The translations under genes were made by a program, and so were the position numbers. Below, one piece after another: positions 9,202 through 23,395 of a stretch of DNA of 27,284 nucleotides. The stretch covers positions 1-27,284 of the forward strand of contig JABUUQ010000001.1 in NCBI GenBank assembly GCA_021443125.1, given 5' to 3'. The notes under the pieces were generated by a model. That model did no database searches. It was not told the DNA's origin and was given only the letters and a program-made list of their open reading frames with translations. The DNA is from Bacteroidales bacterium (GTDB lineage Bacteria > Bacteroidota > Bacteroidia > Bacteroidales > P3). Within the stretch, counting starts at the first letter, position 1. Each line of letters begins with the position of its first letter.

Positions 9202-9696
9202 TTAGAAAGGATAAATTAATTTTGCTTTTTTCTGAATAATATTCAATGGAAGTGTTCCCCAATATCTCCCATCCCAGCTCTTTTCATGAGGTGCTAGAGG
9301 TAAAAATTCCCCTTTTTGTGGCTGTAATTTCTCTACTGTTAATTCAGGAAACTTATACCCCTCACTATCTGCCTTTTGTATTTTTCCATATAGAAATCCA
9401 TTAATATAAAGACTATCTTCTTTGATTTCCACCTTGTCATTTTCTAAAGCTCCTATTTCTTTTAACATTGCTTTACAAAATCTTGGAATATAATTTTTAA
9501 CTTTTGCTTGTGCTGGAACTTCAAAAAGAACTATATCCCCTTTATTTAACGTTTTATAATTTCTCATAAAGTAAATTCCTCTTGGTAAACTAGGAGTAAG
9601 ATTAATTGTAAAAAAATTACTTCCTAGTATTAAAAGACCACTAAAGATCCCAAGAATTAAAACTCTTCTTAAGAAAAGTTTATGTTTATTTTTCAT
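9202..9696 (-). CDS. traF: S26-family conjugal pilin-processing peptidase (IncP TraF-like)
   Basis: NLTPSLPRGIY (Ser), LKEI (Lys), SWDGRYWG. Confidence 0.9.
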   Translation of the reverse strand: MKNKHKLFLRRVLILGIFSGLLILGSNFFTINLTPSLPRGIYFMRNYKTLNKGDIVLFEVPAQAKVKNYIPRFCKAMLKEIGALENDKVEIKEDSLYINGFLYGKIQKADSEGYKFPELTVEKLQPQKGEFLPLAPHEKSWDGRYWGTLPLNIIQKKAKLIYPF

Positions 9697-10651
9697 TTGA
9701 TCCTCCTGTTGCCCCTATATATGCAGAAACAGTATTATTTCCACCAGAAGAACTTGAAAATCTATCTTTCATTCCTGAAAATCCCCCAGCCTTGCTATAT
9801 GAATCTTTTAATATTCCTCCTGCTTTATTAAATGCCATTGCTGTAAGTCCAGCCATTGCCACACTTGGAGCTCCTGAACTAACACTACTACCACTTATTA
9901 AAGCACTTGATATTGCGTTTACTCTCTTCAAAAGCATAAACAATATTAATAACTGAAATAAAACAGAAGTTAAAGCTATAAAATCAAAAGTTAGTGCTTC
10001 AATAAAAAGTTGATTCCATCTATCTTCTAAAAAATTTAAAACCATAATAAACATAATAATTTTAAAAGATTGAGCAAACAACCCTGATAGTGCTCTCATA
10101 GCAAAACTTTTTGTTTCAGAAAACATTCCAAATGGAAGTAAAAGAATTCCACAAACTGCCATTAAATAATACTCAACAACAACTAAAATTATTTCTAAAG
10201 ATAGCATTATTACAGCTGTTAGCATTCCTAGTATTACTAATCCTAAAATAACAGGAACGCTTTCTATTCCTATTTTATCTAAAACTACCATTCCTACTCC
10301 ACCACCTCCAACAAATGGAGCTAATACAATTAAAAAATCAAAAAAGAATTTAAAAGGACTTACTAATAAATCAATTGAAGTATTTCCAACAGCATAGTTT
10401 CCAAGTTGAATCGCTCCATTTATAAACCAATTCATCACAATAGTTTTATATTCTAATATAAGCCAGAAAAAGAAACTATATCTTAGCATTTTAGCAACTA
10501 AAGTTTTAAAAGCGTCAACTTCTCCCCACATAAAAGTGTAGACAATATCAATAACAGCTAACATTGCCCCCATACTAAGAGCAAAAGGCTGAAAATACTT
10601 TAATGCTTTGGTTAAGAAATCTATAATGTCTTTTAAAATTTCATTAGTCAA
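9686..10651 (-). CDS. trbL: P-type conjugative transfer protein TrbL (VirB6 family)
   Basis: Polytopic membrane protein; EYYLMAVCGILLLPFGMFSETK..A..AL pattern; Gly/Ser-rich tail; follows trbJ. Confidence 0.88.
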   Translation of the reverse strand: MTNEILKDIIDFLTKALKYFQPFALSMGAMLAVIDIVYTFMWGEVDAFKTLVAKMLRYSFFFWLILEYKTIVMNWFINGAIQLGNYAVGNTSIDLLVSPFKFFFDFLIVLAPFVGGGGVGMVVLDKIGIESVPVILGLVILGMLTAVIMLSLEIILVVVEYYLMAVCGILLLPFGMFSETKSFAMRALSGLFAQSFKIIMFIMVLNFLEDRWNQLFIEALTFDFIALTSVLFQLLILFMLLKRVNAISSALISGSSVSSGAPSVAMAGLTAMAFNKAGGILKDSYSKAGGFSGMKDRFSSSSGGNNTVSAYIGATGGSNEK

Positions 10652-11464
10652 CTATATTCCCCCCCAACTAGCATTTATTTTTTTCTTTGCTTCTTTTTGC
10701 TTAATTAGTGCTTTTTCAAAACGATCATCAAATTCCAAACGATAAGCCTTTAATGCTTCATCTGCACTTGCATCAGTTACAGCTTTTTCTTGTCTTATTT
10801 CTTCACTAACTGCACTTGCCACAACCACAGATTTTCCAAGTATATTTTTTATTTCAACAAGACTTGTTGCCATCTGTCCCAAAATATGATTTGCTACTGT
10901 TAAAGCTTCTAAAGCTCCCTCTGTTGTAGAAGCTTTTTCTATTAATATCTCTAAATTTCTTTTATCATTTAGTGTAGGGTTATAACTAGCTTCATTCATA
11001 GCGTCAAAAATTACATTTCGAGTTTCTTTTCTAACTCTTTCTATTTCTTTTTTATTAGCTTCAATTCCCTCATCTAGTCCTATTTTATAAACATCACTTA
11101 TTTGATCCGAAGTTCTATACAAAATTCCAAAATCCTTTAAAAAATCCTCTGTTTTAAAAAAAACTGATTTTGTTTGAGCGTCAAAATCTATAATTCTCTC
11201 AAGTCCTCTTTTTATAAATGTTATATTTCCAGAACTTAAGTCTTTTCCTATTTGCTGTAAGTTTTTAGCCTCATTGGCTAACTGCTGATATTGATTTTTT
11301 AATTGTTCTATCTGATTCTTAGTTTGTTCAACTTGTTCGATTGTTTGCTTTACTGCTTCTATTTTGGCTAAAATATTTGTTTCATGATTTTTAGGATCAT
11401 AAACTATTCTTGCTGAATATGTATATGTAGTTAAAATCAATAAAAATATTAATATCTTTTTCAT
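10652..11464 (-). CDS. trbJ: P-type conjugative transfer protein TrbJ (VirB5 family)
   Basis: Signal peptide, IVYDPKN motif, then Q-rich helices (NQIEQLKNQYQQLANEAKNL). Confidence 0.85.
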   Translation of the reverse strand: MKKILIFLLILTTYTYSARIVYDPKNHETNILAKIEAVKQTIEQVEQTKNQIEQLKNQYQQLANEAKNLQQIGKDLSSGNITFIKRGLERIIDFDAQTKSVFFKTEDFLKDFGILYRTSDQISDVYKIGLDEGIEANKKEIERVRKETRNVIFDAMNEASYNPTLNDKRNLEILIEKASTTEGALEALTVANHILGQMATSLVEIKNILGKSVVVASAVSEEIRQEKAVTDASADEALKAYRLEFDDRFEKALIKQKEAKKKINASWGGI

Positions 11465-13848
11465 TTCAAAACCTCCTCTATATTACCTTTAATATCTTTG
11501 TATTTGAGCCATTCTTTACAAAATTCATCTGCTGATTCCACTTTTTCTGAAAGTTTAAGAGCTTCGCTTTGACTTTCTAAGTCCGTTGAAGCTATAAAAG
11601 CTATTTCAATTTTTCCTAAACTCAAATCAAATAACCTTGATCCTTTATTTGATTTAAAATAATAATCTTTTCTTTCTGTTGCGTCTGTAATTATATTGAG
11701 TTCCTTTGTATTAAGTCCAAATTCTCTATATAAATCTGCGTCTTGGTTATTTGCTTTTTTATTTGCCAAGAAAATTTTTGTTTCACAAGCATTTAAAATT
11801 GTATCTTTTAAGACAGATTTTGTTATATCAGAAAGTTCTTGTGTTGCAAAAATAACTCCTGCTTTTTTCTTCCTGAATGTTTTTAACCAGTCTTTTATTT
11901 TTTCTCTAAATGCTTCATTTGCAAGAAATAACCAACATTCATCAAGTAAAACAATTACAGGGTGTATTCCATCAAGTGTTTTATAAATTTTACGGAATAA
12001 ATACGAAAGTAATGGACCAATAGCTTGTCTATTATCAATTACTTTCGCCATTTCAAAAACAACCCAATCTGAAATATCTAAATCATCATTATTAGAATCA
12101 AAATATCTTCCAAGAGCTCCCCCCTTTGTATAATTGTTTAAAGCGTCTTTTACTTGTTGTAAGTTACAATAAGAAACAAAAGCCGTCATTGTCCTAACAT
12201 CAATTGGATCTTTTGCTAATAATGTCAATGTTTCCCAAACTACTTTTTTTATATTAGCGTCTAATACAATGTTTTCTTGTTCTAAAATATCTAAAATAAA
12301 TTGATTCGCCCATTCCAACTCTTGAAGTTCATCAATATTACGTAAAGGCTGAAAAGATAATTTATCTTCCCCAATATCATAGAATTTTCCTCCAACTGCT
12401 TTTGTTAAAACAAGTGAAGATCTATCTTTATCAAAAATAAATGTCTTTGAATTTTTATATTTCCGCCAATTAAAAGCTATATCCCCTAAAAGCACAGACT
12501 TTCCAGCCCCTGTTCTTCCCAAAATCAAAGTATGGGCTACTCCACTATCTCCATGTAAATTTATTCTAAATGGAGTTGATCCTGTTGTTTGAGTATAGAT
12601 AAGTGGAGGCTCATTTAAATATTTATTCCAACTTTCCCCAGCCCATGGCTCTGAAAATGGCATTAAATGACTTAAAGTCAAGGAATTTAAAATTGACACA
12701 TCTCTTAAATTATGGTATATATCCCCCGGTATACTACCTAAAAAAGCATGAACAGCATTATAGCTTTCATCAATTGTTATAAATCCTAAATTTTGGATAA
12801 CCTTTGTCACAACTTCTACTTTTCTTTCAATTTCATTTATATCTTTATCTCTTAAAACTATTAAGTTTATATAAAAACCTTGTGACACATAATCCCCTTG
12901 TGTTAATATTTCCTGATCCTTTACTTCCCCAGCTTTTAATAAAGCGTCCTCATTCTGATTAGTAGGCTCTCTTTGTGTTATTTCTTTTTGGATCATTTGC
13001 CATAAAGAAAATCTTCCTGAAAACCATTTTTTCCATTTTGAATTCAATATCTCTAAAGCTTCTAATTTATCAAGAGCTTTAAATCTAGTATGCCATCTAT
13101 ACTCTATATCTAATTTATTTAACTTATCAAAAAAACAAGGATATGTTACATGAGGAAATCCTAAAATAGATATACACCTAACATATTCATCATCTAACTT
13201 AGGTTTTAAACCTCCTACAAATAAACTATCACATAAATAATTTGATAAAAAAATTGGAGTTTTAGGCAAAATTACTTTTTGTTTTTTTACACTTACACAA
13301 TCATGTAAAAAAGTTAATGTTTCTTCCTCTGTTAGCTCTTCAACAGCTAAAAATACACTTTTTAATAACCCTTTTATATGTTTAAATTCTTTCAAAAAGA
13401 TTTCAACATAATTTTTTTCATATGCTTGAAAATCTGAATCTATCATCATTTTTTCTACTTTTTTAACTTGATCTGTAGGTACTGTATAAGTTATTGTTAA
13501 AAATGTCTTTGTTTCGTAATGATCCCCCTTGTTAAAAAAAGCCTCTCTCTCTTTGTCTATCATCTGCCCTAAAAGATCAGGAAAGTTTCCTGTTTGGTAT
13601 TTTTGACACTTCATTCTAATAGAATCTATATGTAGAACATATCCACCTTCAAGTCTTTTTAAAACATTATTTAATTTTGTTGTATGTACTTTCATTTCTT
13701 CGTCTGTACAATTTTCTAAGTCATAACCCCTGATTTCCAGCGTTTTTTGAAGAGTTCCATTTTTATTTAAAATTAGTCCTTCTTTAAGCATAAGAAACCA
13801 AGGTATATATGTAGAAAGTTTTTTATTAAAATCTCCGTATTCTCTCAC
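11461..13848 (-). CDS. trbE: TrbE / VirB4 ATPase
   Basis: Walker A GRTGAGKS, FIFDKDRS, Walker B LLDECW, WLKTFRKK..GVIFATQ. Confidence 0.96.
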   Translation of the reverse strand: MREYGDFNKKLSTYIPWFLMLKEGLILNKNGTLQKTLEIRGYDLENCTDEEMKVHTTKLNNVLKRLEGGYVLHIDSIRMKCQKYQTGNFPDLLGQMIDKEREAFFNKGDHYETKTFLTITYTVPTDQVKKVEKMMIDSDFQAYEKNYVEIFLKEFKHIKGLLKSVFLAVEELTEEETLTFLHDCVSVKKQKVILPKTPIFLSNYLCDSLFVGGLKPKLDDEYVRCISILGFPHVTYPCFFDKLNKLDIEYRWHTRFKALDKLEALEILNSKWKKWFSGRFSLWQMIQKEITQREPTNQNEDALLKAGEVKDQEILTQGDYVSQGFYINLIVLRDKDINEIERKVEVVTKVIQNLGFITIDESYNAVHAFLGSIPGDIYHNLRDVSILNSLTLSHLMPFSEPWAGESWNKYLNEPPLIYTQTTGSTPFRINLHGDSGVAHTLILGRTGAGKSVLLGDIAFNWRKYKNSKTFIFDKDRSSLVLTKAVGGKFYDIGEDKLSFQPLRNIDELQELEWANQFILDILEQENIVLDANIKKVVWETLTLLAKDPIDVRTMTAFVSYCNLQQVKDALNNYTKGGALGRYFDSNNDDLDISDWVVFEMAKVIDNRQAIGPLLSYLFRKIYKTLDGIHPVIVLLDECWLFLANEAFREKIKDWLKTFRKKKAGVIFATQELSDITKSVLKDTILNACETKIFLANKKANNQDADLYREFGLNTKELNIITDATERKDYYFKSNKGSRLFDLSLGKIEIAFIASTDLESQSEALKLSEKVESADEFCKEWLKYKDIKGNIEEVLK

Positions 13849-13858
13849 ATTACACCTC

Positions 13859-14113
13859 TTATTCTGGATAAAAATATTTTCTTTGTTTTAAATAACATTT
13901 TAGAATTATTTTTATAATTAATGGATCTTTTTTACATACCTTTCTAAGTACGAGGTATAGTATAATAAATATTGGCAAGGTAAAAAATGCTCTATAAATT
14001 ACTAAAAATAAGAAAGTCAATGAAACTAATATAATAAATGCTTCTCTTGGAATTCCTGCTATTGTAGGATATACCGTCAAAGCTCTACAAACAGGTACTT
14101 GATATCCTTCCAT
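13859..14113 (-). CDS. trbD: TrbD / VirB3 membrane protein
   Basis: PVCRALT.YPTIAGIPRE...KKDP pattern; directly upstream of trbE. Confidence 0.88.
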   Translation of the reverse strand: MEGYQVPVCRALTVYPTIAGIPREAFIILVSLTFLFLVIYRAFFTLPIFIILYLVLRKVCKKDPLIIKIILKCYLKQRKYFYPE

Positions 14114-14126
14114 TTTTACCTCCTTC

Positions 14127-14285
14127 TTAAAGTTTCCATATAATAATGATTAAACCAAGTAAAAGATTGCTAATACATATATGTAAAGCCTTAGCCTCTG
14201 ATGGAGTATTAAGAAATTTAAATAAAAATATATTAAAAATAAGAAATATACTTATAGTTATTAATGGCTCCCATTTCTTTTTCAC
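14127..14285 (-). CDS. Unannotated 52-aa two-helix membrane protein between trbB and trbD
   Basis: Manual translation from GTG 14285 (RBS AAGGAAG): MKKKWEPLITISIFLIFNIFLFKFLNTPSEAKALHICISNLLLGLIIIIWKL*. It fills the gap up to the trbD RBS. Confidence 0.65.
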   Translation of the reverse strand: MKKKWEPLITISIFLIFNIFLFKFLNTPSEAKALHICISNLLLGLIIIIWKL

Positions 14286-14315
14286 TTTTACTCTTCCTTT
14301 CTGAAAAATTATAAT

Positions 14316-14336
14316 TGTATTACAAGTTGTAATACA
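14316..14336. promoter_or_regulatory. TGTAWTACA-N3-TGTAATACA element, copy 2
   Basis: TGTATTACA-AGT-TGTAATACA; 8 bp after the trbB stop. Confidence 0.8.
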
Positions 14337-14344
14337 CTATATTC

Positions 14345-15280
14345 TCATTTTTTTATATCATCTAAAATATAATTATTATTTTCATCAAGTCCTTTCATTC
14401 TCTTTATTTCAACTATTTTTCTTTTGTTGCCAATTTTTTCTAATACTATAATTAAATTTATATTATCAGCTATCAATTCTTTTTGAGGATTTAAAGACTC
14501 TCTTAAGATATATTGTTCCAACTGTCTAAGACCTTTTAAAGCGGTATGAGAATGTATCGTACAAACTCCACCCCCATGTCCTGAATTCCACCCAGTTAAT
14601 AAGTATAAAGCTTCTTTTCCTCTTACCTCCCCAACTACCAATCTTTCAGGAGTTCTTCTTAAAGAATGTTCTATAACTTTTACCATTGGAAAAGTTGGAG
14701 AAGTCAATAATCTAAGAGTATTTTGTGACTTGCATTGTATTTCTTTAGTATCCTCTGCTATCAATAATCTTTCTTTTGTTGCTTCTATTTCAGCTATACA
14801 AGCATTTGCAAATGTAGTTTTTCCGCTTCCTGTCGCCCCAATTATAAGAATATTTTCTTTATTTCTAATTGACTCACAAATAATCTCTTTTTCTTCTTTT
14901 GAAATATTTCCTTGTTTAATATAATCATCTAAAGAAAATATTAAAATAGAATGTTTTCTTAAATTAAATGAGGGAGGACTAACTGGATTTATTGAAGCAG
15001 AAAAACGGCTACCATCTGGAAAAGTCGTTTCTAAAGTAGGAGCTATCTCATTAACTATTATTCCTTCATAATCTGCTACAAGCCTAATTATTGATAAAGT
15101 TTTTTCCTCTTCCATCTTTTTTTCGGTATCTATCCACCCTTTAGAGAAAGTACAGATAGAAACCATTTGATTGTCATTTACTGCTATTTCATTTACATCT
15201 TTATCTTCTATAAATCCTATAAGCTCTTTTCCTAAATTAAGTTTAATTAGCTTTAGTTTCTCTTCCTTCTGTTCGTTCAT
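14345..15280 (-). CDS. trbB: TrbB / VirB11 ATPase
   Basis: GATGSGKT, AEDTKEI, LRRTPERLVVGEVRG, HGGGVCTIH. Start at ATG 15280 or 15283 given RBS GGAGG. Confidence 0.95.
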   Translation of the reverse strand: MNEQKEEKLKLIKLNLGKELIGFIEDKDVNEIAVNDNQMVSICTFSKGWIDTEKKMEEEKTLSIIRLVADYEGIIVNEIAPTLETTFPDGSRFSASINPVSPPSFNLRKHSILIFSLDDYIKQGNISKEEKEIICESIRNKENILIIGATGSGKTTFANACIAEIEATKERLLIAEDTKEIQCKSQNTLRLLTSPTFPMVKVIEHSLRRTPERLVVGEVRGKEALYLLTGWNSGHGGGVCTIHSHTALKGLRQLEQYILRESLNPQKELIADNINLIIVLEKIGNKRKIVEIKRMKGLDENNNYILDDIKK

Positions 15281-15545
15281 CATCAACCTCCTCTTTCTCT
15301 TTTATTCCTTGATTGATGATTGGGATAATTTCTTTTAATTTTCCATTTATTTTATCTTTAAATTCTCTCTTTCTCCCATTTGTATTTAGAATCTCATAAA
15401 TATTCTCATCTTCCAATAAATCATTAAAAACAACTGCAAGAACTCTTTTCTTTTTTTCCTCCCATTCTTTATCTACTTTTTCTAGCTGTTCTAAAAATTT
15501 TTTTCTTTTCTCTGCTAGAGAAATTTTTTTTCTTTTTTCATTCAT
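15243..15545 (-). CDS. Hypothetical charged coiled-coil protein (100 aa)
   Basis: Starts 2 bp after the traG stop and overlaps the trbB start. Confidence 0.65.
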   Translation of the reverse strand: MNEKRKKISLAEKRKKFLEQLEKVDKEWEEKKKRVLAVVFNDLLEDENIYEILNTNGRKREFKDKINGKLKEIIPIINQGIKEKEEVDDERTEGRETKAN

Positions 15546-15547
15546 TT

Positions 15548-17308
15548 TTAACTCCTTAATTTATCTATATTAGCCCAATTTTTAGGATTTTCTCTTTCCT
15601 CCAAATTAAAAATTTTCTGATCTAAATAGGGCTCTTCATAATATTTAATTATTCTTCCAAATGTAGGATAACAACCACCAAGCATAATTATGCTATTTTC
15701 ATCTCCAAGTTGAGGAATAACCTCTTCTGGCTCCATCAATCGACGTGATTTTTTATTTATATTTACATTTCCATCAAAGAATCCACCATATTTTTTTCCT
15801 GATTGAGTATCATAGTAAATAGTTTTACTTCCCAACATATCAGAAATTAATTTACAAGTTTCATAGTCTGTAGCTGTAGGAGCATAAAAAACAGAACTAG
15901 CACACCCCTGACGAATTGAATTTACTTGTCCGTAAACTGCTTTTATCTGCTCCGTATTTTGAGCTATTAAGACCATTTTTATTCCGTAACTTGCCACAAA
16001 TCCAAGTGCTATATCCATTAATTCTATTTTTCCATAAGCTGGAAATTCATCTAACATCATTAAACATTTATGTTTGTGTTTTTCTTTACGCATTGATATT
16101 CCTATGAATTGAGTTATAAATATACGGATATAGAGCCCCAAGGCGTCTAACTCTTCTTGTTGAGCACAAAAATATAAACTTACAGGATTGTCATTATCCA
16201 TCAAATCTTTTATTCTGAAATCTGAACTTGAAGTATTTTTTTTGATGATAGGATCCTTAAAAATAGCCAATTTATTTAAAGCTGTTGAAATAACTGAACT
16301 TCTTTCCCGACTTGATTTTTCCAGCATTTCTGTAGCTCCTTGAACTATTGTTGGGTGTACTCCATCTTCATATTTATTTCCATAAATATTTCTAATAATA
16401 TTTTTATCAGATTCATAACGTTCTTTTAAAAGATCACTAAATTTTTCTTCCTGAGTTTTACTAGGGCTTGTCATAAATTCATAAACATCTGATAAAGAGG
16501 CATTTTCATCTTTATATAGCAAATGTAGAAATACAGATACAAAAACCGTATTAGCAGACACATGAAAGTGATCTCTTGACTTTCCACGTTCAGGTTGAGT
16601 TAAAATATTAGCTATAATTTCACAATCCCTAACTTCATAAGGTGTTCTTATTCTTATTTCTTTTAAAGGATTGTACTTACTTCCACCCAAGGCGTCATAT
16701 GGAGCTAATCTTAAAACTTTATTTCCAAAATAATCTTGTCTATATTTAGATGTTGTTTTAAAGTTTTCTCCCTTTATATCAAAACAAATAACCGAGCCTC
16801 TCCAATTAACTAAAGTTGGTAATATAATTCCTGTTCCTTTTCCTGATCTACTTTTTGCAACTACTAAGATATGAGTTTTTTCATTGTCGATTATAGTCTT
16901 TGATGTTGTTGTTCTTCCTAAAATAACCCCATCTTTATATAGTTCTCCTTTTTGGGGTACTTTTCTATCAAGATATCCTTTTTTCTTTAATTCTCTAGGT
17001 TTTGAATATCTTCCACTTCCATGAGTATCCTTTTGACCTCTTTTACACAAAATAACATATATAAATATGCTATAAATTGAATTGAAAACTCCTATTAATA
17101 AAAGTGACAAGTCTGTTAATCTAGGAGCAGATTTTTTATACTTAAAAATCCAAACAATAATTGAGTATGGAAAATAAAACTTTCCTATAACTGGTTTTAA
17201 TACTGGGTTATAATTAGTTATATGTGCAAAAATTTGTGTTGTTATCCATAAAGATAAAGTCAAGCCTATTAAAAGGATCAGAAAAAATTGTAAAATTTTT
17301 TTATTCAT
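15548..17308 (-). CDS. traG: Type IV coupling protein TraG/VirD4
   Basis: N-terminal TM helices, DTHGSGRYS, AKSRSGKG (Walker A), FDIKGEN, LMLDEF (Walker B). Confidence 0.95.
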   Translation of the reverse strand: MNKKILQFFLILLIGLTLSLWITTQIFAHITNYNPVLKPVIGKFYFPYSIIVWIFKYKKSAPRLTDLSLLLIGVFNSIYSIFIYVILCKRGQKDTHGSGRYSKPRELKKKGYLDRKVPQKGELYKDGVILGRTTTSKTIIDNEKTHILVVAKSRSGKGTGIILPTLVNWRGSVICFDIKGENFKTTSKYRQDYFGNKVLRLAPYDALGGSKYNPLKEIRIRTPYEVRDCEIIANILTQPERGKSRDHFHVSANTVFVSVFLHLLYKDENASLSDVYEFMTSPSKTQEEKFSDLLKERYESDKNIIRNIYGNKYEDGVHPTIVQGATEMLEKSSRERSSVISTALNKLAIFKDPIIKKNTSSSDFRIKDLMDNDNPVSLYFCAQQEELDALGLYIRIFITQFIGISMRKEKHKHKCLMMLDEFPAYGKIELMDIALGFVASYGIKMVLIAQNTEQIKAVYGQVNSIRQGCASSVFYAPTATDYETCKLISDMLGSKTIYYDTQSGKKYGGFFDGNVNINKKSRRLMEPEEVIPQLGDENSIIMLGGCYPTFGRIIKYYEEPYLDQKIFNLEERENPKNWANIDKLRS

Positions 17309-17381
17309 TTTCCTCCTAAAATGAGTATTATTTTTTAAAAAATAAATCCCATTAAAAACATTAAAATATTTCTTTAAAACT

Positions 17382-18539
17382 TTATTTTGTATAAGGACTT
17401 AGAACAATATCTGAACGAACTGTTATGTTAAATCTATATCCTTGTGGAATTTCAATGGTTGGCTGTCTATTTAAAATTCTATCTCCCATTTTATTTCCAA
17501 AATTTAATATTACTTCTCCAGCTCCTCTTCCAGCTTCTGTTCTCCAGTCATCTTCTCCGTTATCAGTTACGATTGCACCTCCCGCCCCCATAGCTGATGA
17601 CAAAACAACAGCTTTTAAGAGATCAAAGAAATGGTTGTTGACTTTTCCTGAAAATCCAGCATACCCTGAAAGATCCACTCCATTCATATTACTTAAGCCA
17701 ATATATTTCCCATTAGGAAAAATAAGTCTTTTCCAAACAATTAATAATCTATCTTGGCCATAAGAAATACCACTGTCATATTCTCCTATAACCCTAGTCC
17801 CTTTAGGAATTAATAAAACATTCCCTGTTACTGTATCATATACATCTTCTCTTACTACTGCCACAGATTCAGAGGGTAAATCGGAATTAATTCCAGTTAC
17901 AAGAATAGCTGGTATCATTGTTCCCGCCATAACTTCATATGGAGAAATAGGATTAGCTTCTGTAAATGGATTATAAAAATTTCCTGTCTTGCTATTTTCT
18001 ATAAAATCTTTTTTTTCTTTCTGCATATTTTGTGCCATATATTCATTAGAGGGCATTGATGGAGAAATATATTGTCCTGCTCCTTGATAATTTTCCCCTC
18101 TAGCAGTTGAAGCTGTTTCATTTGTTGAAGTATTTCTTGCAAATTCAAGATTTGAAGTCCTAGCTTGTTCTTCATCCTGAATAAGTTTTGTATAATAAGC
18201 TCTTAATAATTCCGCTCTTTCATCAAAGCCATTATAATTTCCATTATCAACAATTACATTATTACTTACTGGTTGTTCAGTAATTGTTGTTTCTTGCTTT
18301 ACAGGTTTCTTTTCTGTTTTAATAAAATATTGATCTGTTATAGGCAGTTCTTCACTTGTTAAATTTTCATGTTGTTGCTCTTTCTTTACTTCTTTTTTTG
18401 TATTATTATCTTCTCTCTGATATAAAGCATTTGCAATTGCAAGTATAAAAATTAAAAAAACTAATAAAGAACCAGCATATATGATTTGCTTTTTTATCTG
18501 ACTTGCTACTTTTGGTGTATCTCCTGTTTCTATTCCCAT
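17382..18539 (-). CDS. trbI: TrbI / VirB10
   Basis: TM anchor; GTMIPAILVTGINSDLP, DVYDTVTG..LLIPKGT, GQDRLLIVW, RQPTIEIPQG. Confidence 0.95.
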   Translation of the reverse strand: MGIETGDTPKVASQIKKQIIYAGSLLVFLIFILAIANALYQREDNNTKKEVKKEQQHENLTSEELPITDQYFIKTEKKPVKQETTITEQPVSNNVIVDNGNYNGFDERAELLRAYYTKLIQDEEQARTSNLEFARNTSTNETASTARGENYQGAGQYISPSMPSNEYMAQNMQKEKKDFIENSKTGNFYNPFTEANPISPYEVMAGTMIPAILVTGINSDLPSESVAVVREDVYDTVTGNVLLIPKGTRVIGEYDSGISYGQDRLLIVWKRLIFPNGKYIGLSNMNGVDLSGYAGFSGKVNNHFFDLLKAVVLSSAMGAGGAIVTDNGEDDWRTEAGRGAGEVILNFGNKMGDRILNRQPTIEIPQGYRFNITVRSDIVLSPYTK

Positions 18540-18542
18540 AAA

Positions 18543-19331
18543 TTAAACACCCTTTCTCTTGAAAATAACTCTCTTCTTTCCAAGTTGAAGTGCTCCTTCT
18601 TGAAAAGTTCTATCAACTATCAAATAATTTCCTTTTACTCTATAATTAACAGTTAAAAGTTTGCCATTTTCTTTCATGAATAACGCTGGAAGCTCTTGTA
18701 AATTTGACTTCATAACAAGAAATGTTTTTTTGCCATCATCAAATATAGTTGATGGTACAAAATCATATTTTTTAGTACTAACAGTATAAGAATAATTTAA
18801 TTTGCTTGGATCAGTCAAAGTCATTTCTTCTTCACTATTTCTTTTTGTTCTTTCTGCTAATTCAATTTCTTTAGGATATAACCATTTAACCATTGGGTTA
18901 TACCATTCTCTGGCACTTGTTACATTAATGTTATAAATTCTTTTATTAGTAAAAATTGAAATATTAGTCTTTACCATTTTTTCTTCATTAAAACTGATAG
19001 GTTTTATAATAATTGCACTTCTTTCCCCATCAGATGATCCTGTATTTACTTCTCTTATTCTCCATCTTGCAGTATCTCCCGCATTAACAGAAGTAACTTG
19101 CTCATCAGGACTTAATAACAAAGTTGTAGTGTTGTTTACACGGCAATAAATGTTATAAATTTTATCCTCTTCATAGAAAAATGTTGTTGTAACATTTTTC
19201 TTTGCTTCTTTTTCTCCTGAAAGAATAACTGCATTTTCTGATGGATATATTTTATCCATCAAAATTTCTTCAACTTCTGCATAAGAAGCTAACGACATAA
19301 CCAAAAAAATAAATGTGAAATATTTTTTCAT
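18543..19331 (-). CDS. trbG: TrbG / VirB9
   Basis: Signal peptide; AGDTARW, IFTNKRIYNI, IFDDGKKTF, VNYRV..NYLIVDR. Confidence 0.92.
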   Translation of the reverse strand: MKKYFTFIFLVMSLASYAEVEEILMDKIYPSENAVILSGEKEAKKNVTTTFFYEEDKIYNIYCRVNNTTTLLLSPDEQVTSVNAGDTARWRIREVNTGSSDGERSAIIIKPISFNEEKMVKTNISIFTNKRIYNINVTSAREWYNPMVKWLYPKEIELAERTKRNSEEEMTLTDPSKLNYSYTVSTKKYDFVPSTIFDDGKKTFLVMKSNLQELPALFMKENGKLLTVNYRVKGNYLIVDRTFQEGALQLGKKRVIFKRKGV

Positions 19332-19411
19332 AATTCTCTATCTCCTTAAAAATTTTATATTTAGATGTTCAAGTAAAAATATTTTTCCCTCCCAGCAACC
19401 CACCCTAAACC

Positions 19412-19504
19412 AACGACGAAGTCGTTAATCATTTTTCTCTTGGATTTCAGGACTGATTATATTAAAAATAATAAAAAGGTAAGTAGTCCGTTCGCTGTAA
19501 GCGA
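19412..19504 (+). other. Two GNA-triloop hairpins in the 195-bp trbF-trbG spacer (candidate ssDNA signal)
   Basis: AACGAC-GAA-GTCGTT (19412-19426) and TCGCT-GTA-AGCGA (19492-19504). Confidence 0.45.
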
Positions 19505-19526
19505 GAAAGCCATCATAAGGGAACTT

Positions 19527-20174
19527 CTACTTTTCCACAGTTAATGAAAAGTCTAAAATTTTAATTCCCAATGGATTGTTTTCTAAGTCAGCTAATGTTT
19601 CAGGAACTTCAACTGTAATTGTAAATATTCCTGTATAATTTCTTCTTTGTACTATTTCCCCTATTCCATCAATTAATGTTTCATTCCATCTAATCTGATA
19701 AGAATTTTCTGTATTAGCCATTTTTACTAAACTTTGTATTTGCATATCACGGGTATAGTTTTCATTTATCAAATCATTTATTTTTTCATTTTCAATCATT
19801 TGTAAATATTTTTTTAATGATCTTGGTTTTAAAAAAAATCTATTTGTTGTAAAAGAAGCATTAACTACATCAACATCACTAGAAAGTGTTCTAGCCCTTT
19901 TTAAAAATTCTCTTAAGAAATATTCTCTTTCATTTTCTGTAGGAATATATTTTTTTAAACTTGCTTGATTTATTCCCTTTGCATTCCCTGTTTCATCAAC
20001 CTCTATTACATAAGGTATAAGATTACTTCTAGTAGTTAAATATCCAGCTATTGAAAAGGAACAAATTGTTAAAACCATTGAGGCAAAAAATGCCATTTTC
20101 CATGAATGAAGAGCTTTAGCTTGACGAGCGTATAAATCTTCATGTTCTCTCTTTGCATTTTCATATCTACTCAT
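19527..20174 (-). CDS. trbF: TrbF / VirB8 family
   Basis: One TM helix, IPYVIEVD..G, SYQIRW.E, NPLGI.I..FS. Start at ATG 20174 given RBS GGAG. Confidence 0.9.
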   Translation of the reverse strand: MSRYENAKREHEDLYARQAKALHSWKMAFFASMVLTICSFSIAGYLTTRSNLIPYVIEVDETGNAKGINQASLKKYIPTENEREYFLREFLKRARTLSSDVDVVNASFTTNRFFLKPRSLKKYLQMIENEKINDLINENYTRDMQIQSLVKMANTENSYQIRWNETLIDGIGEIVQRRNYTGIFTITVEVPETLADLENNPLGIKILDFSLTVEK

Positions 20175-20183
20175 AATCAACTC

Positions 20184-20507
20184 CTATATAAAGACTGCTG
20201 AACTTGTAAATTTATAAAATGCTGTAATTATTCCAGTTGCTCCAAAAGCTATCCCTAAAGCTATAACAATTTTTAAGCCTCTACTCATTCCAGCCCCATG
20301 TCCATCAGACATAGCCCAAGTCAAAGCGGTTATAACAATCGCTATTGTTCCAACTCCAAGTGCAACTGGACCAGAAATTGACTTAGATAAGTCATTTGTG
20401 TTCTCTTCCCAAACTAGCCCCTTTCCAGATGTACTCGCTACTGCTGTTGTACTTTTAATTATTCCTCCTAGTAACAGAGTTTTGAAAAAATTTTTTCTGT
20501 TTTTCAT
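20184..20507 (-). CDS. trbC: TrbC / VirB2 major pilin
   Basis: Signal peptide, GLVWE...SISGPVA motif, two hydrophobic helices; RBS AGGAGG. Confidence 0.88.
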   Translation of the reverse strand: MKNRKNFFKTLLLGGIIKSTTAVASTSGKGLVWEENTNDLSKSISGPVALGVGTIAIVITALTWAMSDGHGAGMSRGLKIVIALGIAFGATGIITAFYKFTSSAVFI

Positions 20508-20540
20508 TTGAAAAACCTCCTTTTAAATTTGTTGTATCCC

Positions 20541-20568
20541 ATTATAAAACAAAAAAAAAAAAAAACAA
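20541..20568 (-). promoter_or_regulatory. trb operon promoter with an A15/T15 homopolymer in the -35/-10 spacer
   Basis: Minus strand: TTGTTT (20568-20563), 16-bp spacer, TATAAT (20546-20541); A15 at 20551-20565. Confidence 0.65.
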
Positions 20569-20579
20569 CCATTTTATAG

Positions 20580-20608
20580 TTGATTTTTATTTTAACTTAG
20601 TATATAAT
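20580..20608 (+). promoter_or_regulatory. Divergent promoter TTGATT-17-TATAAT towards oriT/mobA
   Basis: TTGATT 20580-20585, TATAAT 20603-20608; back-to-back with the trb promoter. Confidence 0.6.
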
Positions 20609-20736
20609 TAACTAAGAAAAGTTTAATAGTAGGTAATTTTACAAGTTGCTATCTATAAAAAATAGCAAAAATTTAGAAAAAGAGGCTTTATTCAAAAAGA
20701 CATGAATATCCCTCTTAATTTTTTTAAAAATTATAG

Positions 20737-20778
20737 AGGGCACGTTTAAGGGTATCTCGTACCGAGATACCCAACGTG
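20737..20778 (-). other. oriT: Origin of transfer (MOBQ-type), variant nic core
   Basis: Minus strand: GGGTATCTCG-GTA-CGAGATACCC, T, then TAAACGTGCCCT. Same layout as MOBQ oriTs (IR + TAAGTGCG^CCCT); about 135 bp upstream of the relaxase. Confidence 0.72.
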
Positions 20779-20911
20779 ATTTTTTCTTTCAGAAAAAATG
20801 TCGCAATGCTCAACCCTAAAGGGTGTTGACTTTGTCAACGTCAACCAATCATCAGCTTATAGCTGACCGCCCAATCTTGGACTTGATAAAAAAATTTTAG
20901 GAGGCTAAATC

Positions 20912-23395
20912 TTGGCAATTTATTTTTGTAGATTAAGTCATGGTAAAGTTGGTAGTGGTATTCCACACTATCAATATATTCACGGTTTAGGAAAATACAG
21001 CTATAAAGAAAATGAAGTTGCATACAAAACTGAACATATGCCAGAATGGGCTTCTGCTGATGGAGAAAATTTTTTTCAGAATGCTGATGAACACGAAGGG
21101 GCTAATAGAGCAGTTTATAAAGAAATAAAAGTTGCTCTTCCAAATGAATTTTCTTTAGAAAAAAATCAAGAAATTTTAGAAGAATTTCTAAAAAAAGAAC
21201 TTGGAAAAAACTACTATTATTCTGCTGTTATCCATGACAAAGAAATTGAAAAAGGAATAAGACAAAATATTCATGCTCACATAATGTTTTCTACTAGAGA
21301 ACTTGATGGAGTTGAGAGAAACAATGAGTTATTTTTTAAAAAGGCTAATACAAAAAATCCTCATTTGGGAGGGTGTGCTAAAAATCCTAAATGGGATTCT
21401 AACAATAAAAAAACTGTAGAAGAAATTAGATTATCATGGGAACAAACTTTAAATAAGCATTTAATAGAACATGACATTGAACCAGTAAGCAGACTTTCTT
21501 TAAAAGAACAATATCAAAATGCACTTTTAGAAAAAGACTATGACAAGGCAAAACTTTTGAAAAGAAAAGCTATCAATTGTCAAATGCAAATATTAAAAAA
21601 AGTGTCTGCTGATATTCCTCTTAATCGTAGTGAAGAAAAACAATATAAAAAATATTTAAAAGCTAAAGAAGTTAAATACAGACTTGAAAAAGAATATGAG
21701 CAAATTATCACTTCAAGAGAAAAAGTCAATGAGAAGAAAATAGAATTAAATTCAATACAAGAAAAGTTGGCTAGTATAAATCAACCACAAGAATTCATTG
21801 ATAAAAAGTTTAATTCTTTTATTGAAGTAGAACAAGAACTTTTAAAGCTAGAAAAAGAAATACAAATGATAAAAACAGCTTCATCTTTATCTAATGTTCA
21901 GGTATCAGCAATAGAAAGTATTCATACTGGATTTGAAAAATTACATAAGGAACAAGATTTTTATATAGATAAATTAAATTCTTTGGAAAATGCAGAAGAA
22001 GCAGAAGAAGAAAAAATGAAACATTATACTTCCAAGGTAGCCGATATTCAAGAAAAAATAGATGTTATTGTTAAAACAATAAATCCTGATATTTTAAATA
22101 AATTAACTGCTGAAAAGAAAGTAGAATTAAATGAAAAATTAACACATATACAATCTGAAAAAGATCATTTAAGAACAGTAAGAGAAAACTTATATCAACA
22201 GGCAGATATTAATAAAATTGCTATTGATAAAGTTACTCTAAATAATAAATTCGGCTCATCACTTGAAAAGTTGGTAGATCTTGATTATAACTTAAAAGTT
22301 TTAACTAAAAATTTATCTCGAACAGAAAAACAGCTTGATGGAGATAATTTAAAAGAAACAGCAAAAAATATCTTAACAAAAGGCGAATATAGAAAAACTA
22401 CAGAAGAATTAAATCGTTGTATTGACAACATGAATTCCATTGCTAGAAATATAAATGGAGGAATGTATGATGATAGAAAAGATTTATTAATAAAAAAACA
22501 TGAAGAATATGCAAACTTAAAAGAAAAATTAGAAGTATTAAGATCGAAAGAAAATCAATTAAATAAGTATCTTGGTAAATCACATTCTAAACTTATGAAA
22601 ATTGAAAAAAGTATGGAAAATAAACTAAATACAAGACGAGAAAAACTTTTAGATGAAAGATTTATCATGTTACAAGAAATTCAATTTTATAAATTATATC
22701 TAGCAGAGCCAAAAACACAAGATGTTAAAGAGGTTTTTAATTCTAAATATGCAAAATATAAAGATCAAATTGAAATAGCTACTCATGAACTTTCACGCTT
22801 AGAGAAAATTCATGAAATACTTAAAGAAAACTTAAGCCATGCTAATTTAAAAAATCTTGCTTATAACAAAATTACTAAAGGAGAATATAATAAAGTCCTA
22901 AAAGAATACGGCACTTTAGAAAAGCAAATAAAAGACCTTGAAACAGTAAAGAATTCTTTAAGTAGATTAAATCCAAAAGTATTAATTTTAAATGGAGAAA
23001 TCAACAAGTTGGAAAAACAAAAAGAAGATTTGAAAGAAAAATATAAAACTATGCTAAAAGAAATTGATCCAAAAGTATTTAAAGAAACTCTAAAATCATT
23101 AGAAAATCATAGAGCAAAAACACTTGGAAACATCAAAAAACAAATTGGAAAACAAAAAAATATTAAGTTTGAATTTACTGTTAAAAAATCTACTATTTAC
23201 AAGCTAAGAGAAGAAGTTTATCCTTATAGCTTTGAAAAATTTAAAGCTAAAGCTAATACTTTAAATTTATTCCAGAATTATAAGGGTACAGATTATAGTA
23301 GTCATTCTCGAAATCTTTTTGATGAAGAGGAAGAAAGAAGAAAACAAAGGGAAAAAGAAAGAGAAAAATTACAAGAATATGACTTAGAATTATAA
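20912..23395 (+). CDS. mobA: MobA/MobL (MOBQ) relaxase with a long coiled-coil C-terminus
   Basis: TTG start with RBS AGGAGG; MAIY..., HMPEWA, EIKVALPNEFS, IHD...NIHAHIMFSTR (3H motif). Confidence 0.93.
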   Translation: MAIYFCRLSHGKVGSGIPHYQYIHGLGKYSYKENEVAYKTEHMPEWASADGENFFQNADEHEGANRAVYKEIKVALPNEFSLEKNQEILEEFLKKELGKNYYYSAVIHDKEIEKGIRQNIHAHIMFSTRELDGVERNNELFFKKANTKNPHLGGCAKNPKWDSNNKKTVEEIRLSWEQTLNKHLIEHDIEPVSRLSLKEQYQNALLEKDYDKAKLLKRKAINCQMQILKKVSADIPLNRSEEKQYKKYLKAKEVKYRLEKEYEQIITSREKVNEKKIELNSIQEKLASINQPQEFIDKKFNSFIEVEQELLKLEKEIQMIKTASSLSNVQVSAIESIHTGFEKLHKEQDFYIDKLNSLENAEEAEEEKMKHYTSKVADIQEKIDVIVKTINPDILNKLTAEKKVELNEKLTHIQSEKDHLRTVRENLYQQADINKIAIDKVTLNNKFGSSLEKLVDLDYNLKVLTKNLSRTEKQLDGDNLKETAKNILTKGEYRKTTEELNRCIDNMNSIARNINGGMYDDRKDLLIKKHEEYANLKEKLEVLRSKENQLNKYLGKSHSKLMKIEKSMENKLNTRREKLLDERFIMLQEIQFYKLYLAEPKTQDVKEVFNSKYAKYKDQIEIATHELSRLEKIHEILKENLSHANLKNLAYNKITKGEYNKVLKEYGTLEKQIKDLETVKNSLSRLNPKVLILNGEINKLEKQKEDLKEKYKTMLKEIDPKVFKETLKSLENHRAKTLGNIKKQIGKQKNIKFEFTVKKSTIYKLREEVYPYSFEKFKAKANTLNLFQNYKGTDYSSHSRNLFDEEEERRKQREKEREKLQEYDLEL

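Follow-up and report, generated by a model that had tools for sequence, protein, structure and literature searches.

A length-conserved T15 tract in the predicted promoter spacer of a plasmid conjugation operon may tune transfer

Homopolymers in promoter spacers make surface structures phase-variable, as exemplified by the poly(A) tract of Mycoplasma hyorhinis vlp and the poly(C) tract of Bordetella pertussis fim; the poly(G)/poly(C) tracts of Neisseria meningitidis porA/opc are further examples of tracts located in the spacer. How costly a conjugative plasmid is, and how far it spreads, is set by the way in which the expression of its transfer genes is controlled. Well-studied transfer operons use trans-acting repressors, and the trb promoters of IncP plasmids are under repressor control. 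To our knowledge, no repeat-based control has been described for the transfer operons of well-studied conjugative plasmids, and our search of the literature on repeat-controlled conjugation found nothing relevant. A T-tract in a different position is found at Helicobacter pylori sabA, where it ranges from T5 to T22 in 51 strains (Aberg et al. 2014, PMC4081817). That tract is located upstream of, and adjacent to, the −35 element, and acts by phasing UP-like elements (PMC4081817). Fusobacterial promoters have been described as having a pronounced −10 element, a weak −35 element, and Shine-Dalgarno-led 5′ leaders with a median length of 39 nt (PMC11005410). Here we describe a T-tract on a conjugative plasmid which, different from that of sabA, is located downstream of the TTG and inside the spacer, and hence does not have the sabA-type layout.

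The window, i.e. the whole 27,284-nt stretch of DNA analysed, has a homopolymer of 15 T on the minus strand (A15 on the plus strand) at positions 20551–20565. Read along the minus strand, the order of elements is TTG (20568–20566), T15 (20565–20551), G (20550), TTT (20549–20547), and TATAAT (20546–20541). The tract makes up most of the stretch between the −35-like TTG and the −10 box of the predicted trbC promoter. The −35-like hexamer TTGTTT (20563–20568, minus strand; TTG core at 20566–20568) is a 3/6 match, and the −10 box TATAAT (20541–20546, minus strand), which is a 6/6 match, follows after 16 bp, which is the spacer length with TTGTTT taken as the −35 element. From TATAAT to the ATG of trbC there are 33 nt, and this stretch contains the Shine-Dalgarno sequence AGGAGG (20516–20521, minus strand), 8 nt before the ATG at 20507. 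Transcription is predicted to start at about 20533–20537 on the minus strand, which would give a trbC leader of ca. 27 nt carrying the AGGAGG. The original prediction, made from the window alone, had placed an A15 between TTG and a perfect TATAAT, with a 16-bp spacer and a 3/6 −35 element, some 35 bp upstream of trbC, and had named it the longest homopolymer found; our direct reading agrees on the elements, the distance is matched by the 33 nt given above, and a count of runs confirms the rank, the runner-up being A10.

By sequence, the features of a sigma-70-type promoter of the fusobacterial kind are present: the 6/6 −10 element, the 3/6 −35 element, the 16-bp spacer, and the short leader with AGGAGG. 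As far as these motifs go, the region upstream of trbC fits the published description of fusobacterial promoters. Its repeat tract has the placement expected of a contingency locus, between the −35 and −10 elements of the candidate promoter. The extended −10 element (TGnTATAAT) is absent from the trbC promoter, which has a G at −16 (G-TTT-TATAAT) and not a TG at −15/−14. A promoter scan of the region did not call the predicted trbC promoter, because the scan demands 4/6 matches in each hexamer and the −35 element has only 3/6. Two other readings of the region were rejected. As for a terminator, no terminator-like site was found in 19800–21200, and the T run has no GC hairpin on its 5′ side. 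As for a Bacteroidota-type promoter (TTTG / TAnnTTTG), none was found upstream of trbC, the genes are Shine-Dalgarno-led, and the relatives are fusobacterial. An Rfam search over 20300–21000 returned nothing credible.

The gene behind this promoter, trbC/virB2 (20184–20507, minus strand), encodes the pilin as a 107-aa ORF (PF04956, E = 2.6e-12) and is the first gene of the type IV secretion system (T4SS) operon. The remaining operon (9202–20180, minus strand) was assigned by Pfam matches and continues on the same strand with virB8, virB9, virB10, a virD4-type coupling protein gene, a 100-aa ORF, virB11, virB3, and virB4, and then with a virB5-like gene (weak), virB6, and a TraF-type S26 peptidase gene. 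The T4SS gene order is the same in all related contigs. With a TrbC/VirB2 pilin followed by VirB8, B9, B10, D4, B11, B3, B4, and B6, the controlled product is a surface structure. On the other side of the intergenic region, the MobA/MobL-family relaxase gene (20912–23395, plus strand; PF03389, E = 2.7e-17) diverges from trbC, and beyond it the plus strand carries traD, a Rep3 initiator gene, and an HU gene. The promoter scan called a divergent promoter-like site, TTGATT-17-TATAAT (20580–20608, plus strand; 10/12 match), which faces oriT and the relaxase gene; its −35 element is separated by 11 bp from the TTG that belongs to the trbC promoter, and by 14 bp from the tract. An imperfect palindrome of 20 nt (70% complementary) at 20587–20620 overlaps the −10 element of this relaxase-side promoter and is a candidate operator. 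Between the two divergent units there is also an oriT-like perfect 10-bp inverted repeat (20750–20772), flanked by CACGTT and TTAAACGTGCCCT. Upstream of trbC, repeat and flanks are found again in two related contigs (L011 and L028) and, in a variant form, in a third (L029). The whole unit (window 20735–20790; L011:195–245; upstream region of L028 and L029) is kept while the rest of the intergenic region has diverged. The tract is ca. 185 bp from the repeat, a distance that differs between lineages. Judged from this gene arrangement, the tract is inside the control region of two divergent transfer units.

The window covers positions 1–27,284 of a contig of 29,452 bases (C11). The ends of the contig overlap by 56 bases, and it is therefore a circular plasmid of ca. 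29.4 kb. The T4SS set, the relaxase together with the oriT-like site, the replication gene, the circularity, and the fusobacterial relatives characterize it as a VirB/Trb-type conjugative plasmid of Fusobacteriota. Among ORFs of at least 150 aa, 74% of those on the plasmid have a Shine-Dalgarno-like 4-mer before the start, compared with 5–10% on the chromosomal contigs (C14, C16, C18, C20, and C21). The T9SS C-terminal sorting domain has 32 matches on the same five contigs and none on the plasmid; SusD, sought as a marker of the chromosome, gave no match. The nearest VirB10 (57% identical) is on a contig of a Cetobacterium sp. MAG, and the nearest plasmid VirB4 proteins (42–44% identical) are from plasmids of Ilyobacter polytropus and Fusobacterium varium. 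A TrbC homologue is present in 14 of 190 Fusobacteriota genomes. The region has no match in PLSDB by DNA; a protein search of plasmid databases with TrbC returned only distant Xanthomonas and Caulobacter plasmids, and a word-indexed protein search with TrbC only two matches. Relatives of the binned genome, compared with the plasmid DNA, gave matches at chance level only, which fits a mis-binned plasmid. From these signatures we conclude that the plasmid belongs to a Fusobacteriota-type host using Shine-Dalgarno sites and sigma-70-like promoters; it was probably mis-binned with a chromosome of Bacteroidota. The host question matters because Bacteroidota would not use TTG/TATAAT promoters, and the promoter logic should accordingly be read for the plasmid's own host type. 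The exact TrbC protein occurs in 85 blocks of public assemblies, and the runs with the plasmid come from wastewater, animal gut, biofilm, and freshwater.

The tract is long beyond chance expectation. It is the longest homopolymer and the sole A/T run of more than 10 nt in the window, where A/T runs of 6, 7, 8, 9, and 10 nt number 113, 62, 23, 3, and 1, respectively. The expected number of A/T runs of at least 15 nt in the window is 0.012 with independent bases and ca. 0.086 under a first-order Markov model. A/T runs of at least 11 nt number only seven in the whole 2.0-Mb assembly. The six others are all chromosomal, namely A24, A11, A17, A15, and A13 on C14 of the assembly (G000; 32503–32526, 40038–40048, 40107–40123, 137605–137619, and 149690–149702, respectively) and A14 on C20 (91950–91963). 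Several of these adjoin TAnnTTTG-like Bacteroidota −7 motifs, and the neighbouring repeat units at C14:40038 and C14:40107 differ in their tracts (A11 vs. A17). For the significance of the plasmid tract, conservation is a stronger argument than these chance statistics.

We then inspected the region upstream of trbC in diverged plasmid lineages. In the Cetobacterium MAG (L011/L013; TrbC and VirB10 both 57% identical) the promoter reads TTG-T15-GTTTTATAAT, which is the 28-nt block of the window, and the flanks have diverged. The same block between diverged flanks is found in a second lineage (L040; TrbC 54%). A contig from another run that encodes L040's protein (L039) starts inside the tract with 16 T, so that this run contains a 31-mer with no fewer than 16 T. 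A further lineage (L029/L030; TrbC 41%) has TTG-T14-GTTATATAAT, and a Fusobacteriota genome (L027; TrbC ca. 36%) has T15-G-TAATAT without the TTG. Hence GTTTTATAAT is common to three lineages, including that of the window, and GTTATATAAT occurs in the fourth; the TTG is immediately 5′ of the tract in these four and absent from L027. TTG, tract, G, and −10 box are kept in relatives with TrbC identities of 41–57%. Across the four diverged lineages the tract is T15, T15, T14, and T15, i.e. exactly 15 in three of four. The pure T14–16 followed by G and a −10 box, kept at ca. 40–57% protein identity, argues for function and for selection on length. In one other lineage (L031–L036) the T-rich stretch is interrupted (T6-C-TT-G-TT-AGG-T7) and is followed by a weak −10-like TTAAAT; the remaining TrbC homologues among the relatives read have no long tract. 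Look-ups of P0018 and P0009 yielded no further tract-bearing lineage. The tract promoter is absent where genes of small HTH regulators or other small ORFs precede trbC (L037, L140, and L031), which suggests that these relatives may control the same operon in alternative ways.

Length variation within the same plasmid was read from contigs found in public assemblies by exact-protein look-up of TrbC, VirB8, and VirB9, together with one Logan DNA contig. Fifteen assemblies were read, including the window and a coded run (X4) that could not be compared with the named samples. The tract is T15 in 13 of the 15 (87%), i.e. in the window, ERZ3979719, SRR27381358, SRR31011219, ERZ27313646, SRR10912417, run X4, ERZ23873211, ERZ28665555, ERZ27313630, SRR29703866, SRR35014608, and ERZ28659967; it is T16 in ERZ27259772 and T13 in ERZ27313633. 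All 24 listed runs are Logan contigs, and the tract lengths are those of consensus contigs. The range of 13 to 16 T in these assemblies is far narrower than the T5–T22 of sabA. A 14-kb alignment of nine assemblies separates two clades ca. 170 substitutions apart, with T15 as the mode in both. The T13 copy has no substitution over 14 kb relative to the T15 copy of ERZ27313630, the two T's being the sole difference, and between the T16 copy and a T15 copy there are three substitutions, besides the one T, over 14 kb. Of 35 other A/T runs of 7–8 nt in the same 14 kb, which serve as a control, a single one varies (A7/A8, in one assembly). The two clades (ca. 1.2% divergent) also differ by a 75-bp intergenic indel located before virB3, between the virB11-like and virB3 genes (alignment columns 9312–9386; L130–L138) and in the length of VirB10, 384 vs. 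385 aa, owing to an in-frame indel of 3 nt; in the relaxase gene, in-frame deletions of 9 and 12 nt are found in single assemblies.

On the evidence of this alignment, the length changes appear to be recent, independent, tip-level events, with 15 retained as the background. Frequent slippage together with strong selection for a single length should leave such a pattern. The pattern would equally be left by reversible switching about a favoured state and by occasional errors of short reads or of the assembler; both deviant calls, T13 and T16, were made in short-read assemblies and could be due to Illumina or assembler errors. The original prediction had cautioned that homopolymer length is error-prone in assemblies, a concern that is answered in part, in that 13 of 15 separate assemblies give exactly 15. 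It had also named an invariant tract length as one outcome that would speak against it, whereas T16 and T13 occur on near-identical and identical backbones, and at least 16 T in a related lineage.

Contigs from three metatranscriptome runs span virB8–trbC up to positions 20517, 20496, and 20444, and on the other side contigs from these RNA runs extend from 20690, 20749, and 20743 onward. Positions 20518–20689 are covered by no RNA-run contig, and one DNA-run contig spans the whole stretch. In two samples, the RNA-run contigs begin at 20743–20749, at the oriT-like repeat. The RNA-run contigs are consistent with transcripts that diverge from within the intergenic region and, for trbC, with a start near 20533–20537 rather than at or before the tract; as evidence they are weak, because contig ends are not 5′ ends.

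Similar tracts were sought outside the plasmid. The pattern of T13 or longer, G, 0–3 nt, and TATAAT occurs 10 times in 190 Fusobacteriota genomes, compared with once for a reversed control pattern. Leaving aside the Cetobacterium plasmid, nine sites remain, of which seven are located 5′ of surface-protein genes (L121–L124 and L127–L129, in genomes G091, G105, G150, and G217). Three of the seven are 5′ of YadA-head trimeric autotransporter adhesin genes, and the other four, all in one genome, are 5′ of genes for large proteins with autotransporter-like N-termini. A TTG stands 0–3 nt before the tract in five to seven of these surface-gene promoters, most of which have the extended −10 element TGnTATAAT, and the tracts range from T13 to T17. 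Three paralogues in one genome have otherwise identical promoters with T16, T13, and T14, a fourth paralogue has T17, and two orthologous adhesin genes have T13 and T15. T-tract spacer promoters with copy-to-copy length differences would hence be a recurrent fusobacterial device at surface-structure genes. This looks like a seemingly undescribed tract-length control of fusobacterial adhesins; a search of the literature on fusobacterial phase variation and on such tracts found no relevant paper. The adhesin tracts raise the prior for phase variation and, by contrast, show how tightly the plasmid tract is held. Pattern scans for TTG-Tn-GTTTTATAATG returned 65 stretches from JGI metagenomes, ten of them pure tracts at unrelated loci, and only one unrelated locus from IMG/VR; none of the 65 comes from this plasmid, although records of it or close to it may not be part of the JGI set. 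A tract of this motif at an unrelated locus with conserved flanks, found on metagenome contigs (L050, L054, L067, and L094) and on IMG/VR contigs of ca. 90 kb (L113, L115, L116, and L119), clearly varies in length between assemblies, with n = 10, 10, 10, 10, 10, 11, 15, and 15; IMG/VR calls its contigs of this locus viral.

With confidence only a little beyond an even call, we favour the reading that the tract is a selected spacer element of the trbC/T4SS promoter, acting as a set-point and a low-frequency mutational rheostat. The T15 would form the spacer of a sigma-70-type promoter that runs TTG, T15, GTTT, TATAAT, ca. 27-nt leader, AGGAGG, and ATG, and its length would fix the −35/−10 spacing at 16 bp. 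As a pure block of oligo(dA:dT), it would be a stiff and slightly over-twisted spacer, and the over-twist would partly offset the angular deficit of a 16-bp relative to a 17-bp spacer. Selection would keep the tract at 15 ± 1, and rare T13, T14, and T16 descendants would arise because a long homopolymer slips. Their spacers would be 14, 15, and 17 bp, respectively, and we infer that they should lower or raise transcription of the operon. Such an element would be a promoter set-point with a rheostat and not a free-running on/off contingency switch. The T15 of 13 of 15 assemblies and of three of four diverged lineages is, as read from these comparisons, a mark of stabilising selection on one length: the tract is slippage-prone yet far less variable than classical contingency tracts. 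The mere 3/6 match of the −35 element and the missing call by the promoter scan speak against this reading. The lineage without the TTG (L027) speaks against its spacing part, and the tract may matter independently of the −35 spacing. Moreover, if spacing alone mattered, a mixed sequence would be expected to replace the mutable homopolymer, as seems to have happened in L031–L036. That the tract has stayed pure calls for a physical role of its own or for selection for mutability, and our data do not separate the two.

Selection for mutability is the core of a different explanation, namely an evolved phase-variable (contingency) switch, in which frequent slippage would switch the T4SS and the pilus on and off or grade their expression, so that transfer-proficient and transfer-silent cells always coexist and both cost and exposure to pilus-specific phages are limited. 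A pure homopolymer kept in at least four diverged lineages and length variants on identical or near-identical backbones in two separate clades are what such a switch would leave, and the variants change the spacer to 17 bp (T16) and 14 bp (T13). The break of the L039 contig inside the tract at 16 T, with 15 T in the other run encoding the same TrbC, points the same way, as does the nature of the product, a surface structure. The same holds for the T13–T17 tracts in the arrangement TTG...G-N-TATAAT before genes for YadA-type adhesins and other large surface proteins of Fusobacteriota, which differ in length between paralogues (16/13/14/17) and between orthologues (13 vs. 15). Known promoter tracts, however, spread widely between strains (sabA T5–T22, PMC4081817), whereas this one is exactly 15 in 87% of assemblies and in three of four lineages; the literature searched holds no example of repeat-controlled conjugation, and a weak fusobacterial −35 element may make spacing less critical. 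We therefore regard a contingency switch as possible but doubtful. The phase-variable conjugation proposed in the original prediction is accordingly plausible and partly supported: the spacer position, the surface target, a length that is not invariant, and the adhesin analogy speak for it, and the sharp mode at 15, unlike the T5–T22 of sabA in 51 strains, speaks against it.

The sharp mode, shared by 13 of 15 assemblies and by distant relatives, would also be the mark of a purely structural, effectively invariant element that acts only through its physical properties or spacing, with the T13, T16, and at-least-16 calls being sequencing or assembly stutter. Homopolymers of such length are error-prone in short reads, and both deviant contigs have MEGAHIT-style names (k119_ and k141_). 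This explanation is unlikely, because stutter does not usually remove 2 nt from a consensus contig, the tract is the sole T13/T15 difference over 14 kb and, with three substitutions, one of few in the T16/T15 pair, and a 15-nt run is expected to slip in vivo anyway. Least probable is that the tract serves something other than the TATAAT promoter at 20541–20546. As the oriT-like repeat is ca. 185 bp away and the −35 element of the divergent promoter 14 bp, it could be a stiff or bent element of oriT or the relaxosome, or an insulator between back-to-back promoters; yet its distance to the oriT-like repeat varies between lineages. It could also be the U-run at the start of a transcript from an upstream TATAAA (20574–20579, minus strand), subject to UTP-sensitive reiterative transcription. 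That TATAAA is 7 nt 5′ of the TTG, and L029 has a similar TACAAA; however, the TATAAA is not kept in L011 or L040, where the downstream TATAAT is kept, and the RNA-run contigs stop at 20517, short of the tract.

Under the favoured reading of a spacer set-point, the tract may be a real part of the promoter, and plasmid transfer may be tuned through it. If the promoter itself carried such a mutational set-point or rheostat, transfer-proficient and silent subpopulations could arise by a route that differs from repressor control and does not depend on the host. The plasmid is widespread and Fusobacteriota plasmids are poorly studied, so a conserved, testable control element would be useful. The adhesin tracts, with their length differences between paralogues, suggest a regulatory device that may be phylum-wide. 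The farther-reaching proposal, which we put forward as a tentative one that is more doubtful than not, is that a family of Fusobacteriota plasmids has kept a hypermutable T14–16 spacer before its pilus/T4SS genes, that slippage there stochastically grades or switches transfer, and that this is part of a wider, undescribed use of T-tract promoters at adhesin genes. If true, it would be the first repeat-controlled conjugation switch.

Compared with described systems, the plasmid promoter shares with IncP-type plasmids a mating-pair-formation promoter that adjoins the oriT/relaxase region, a control point for transfer cost; those plasmids, however, rely on trans-acting repressors. With sabA it has in common that a T-tract adjoins the core elements of a promoter in an AT-rich organism. 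The sabA output is graded (a 'rheostat') rather than strictly on/off, with a mechanism proposed to act via DNA geometry (PMC4081817), but its lengths of T5 to T22 differ from the 13 to 16 of the plasmid with their sharp mode. The layout is shared by the fusobacterial adhesin promoters, TTG-(0–3 nt)-T13–17-G-(1–3 nt)-TATAAT, which precede surface-structure genes in the same phylum as the plasmid's relatives. Most of them have TGnTATAAT, whereas the G of the plasmid promoter is two positions further upstream, and their tract lengths differ freely between paralogues and orthologues, unlike that of the plasmid. As in vlp, fim, porA, and opc, a mononucleotide run separates the −35 and −10 elements of a promoter that serves a surface structure, and one-base slippage alters the spacer length, 16–17 bp being the active range. 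Different from these four, the target is a plasmid conjugation operon (T4SS and pilin), and the length is strongly kept, at 15 in 13 of 15 assemblies and at 14–15 in distant relatives. The mechanistic class, a repeat tract in a promoter spacer, is hence already known; what would be new is the conjugation operon as its target and the deeply kept modal length.
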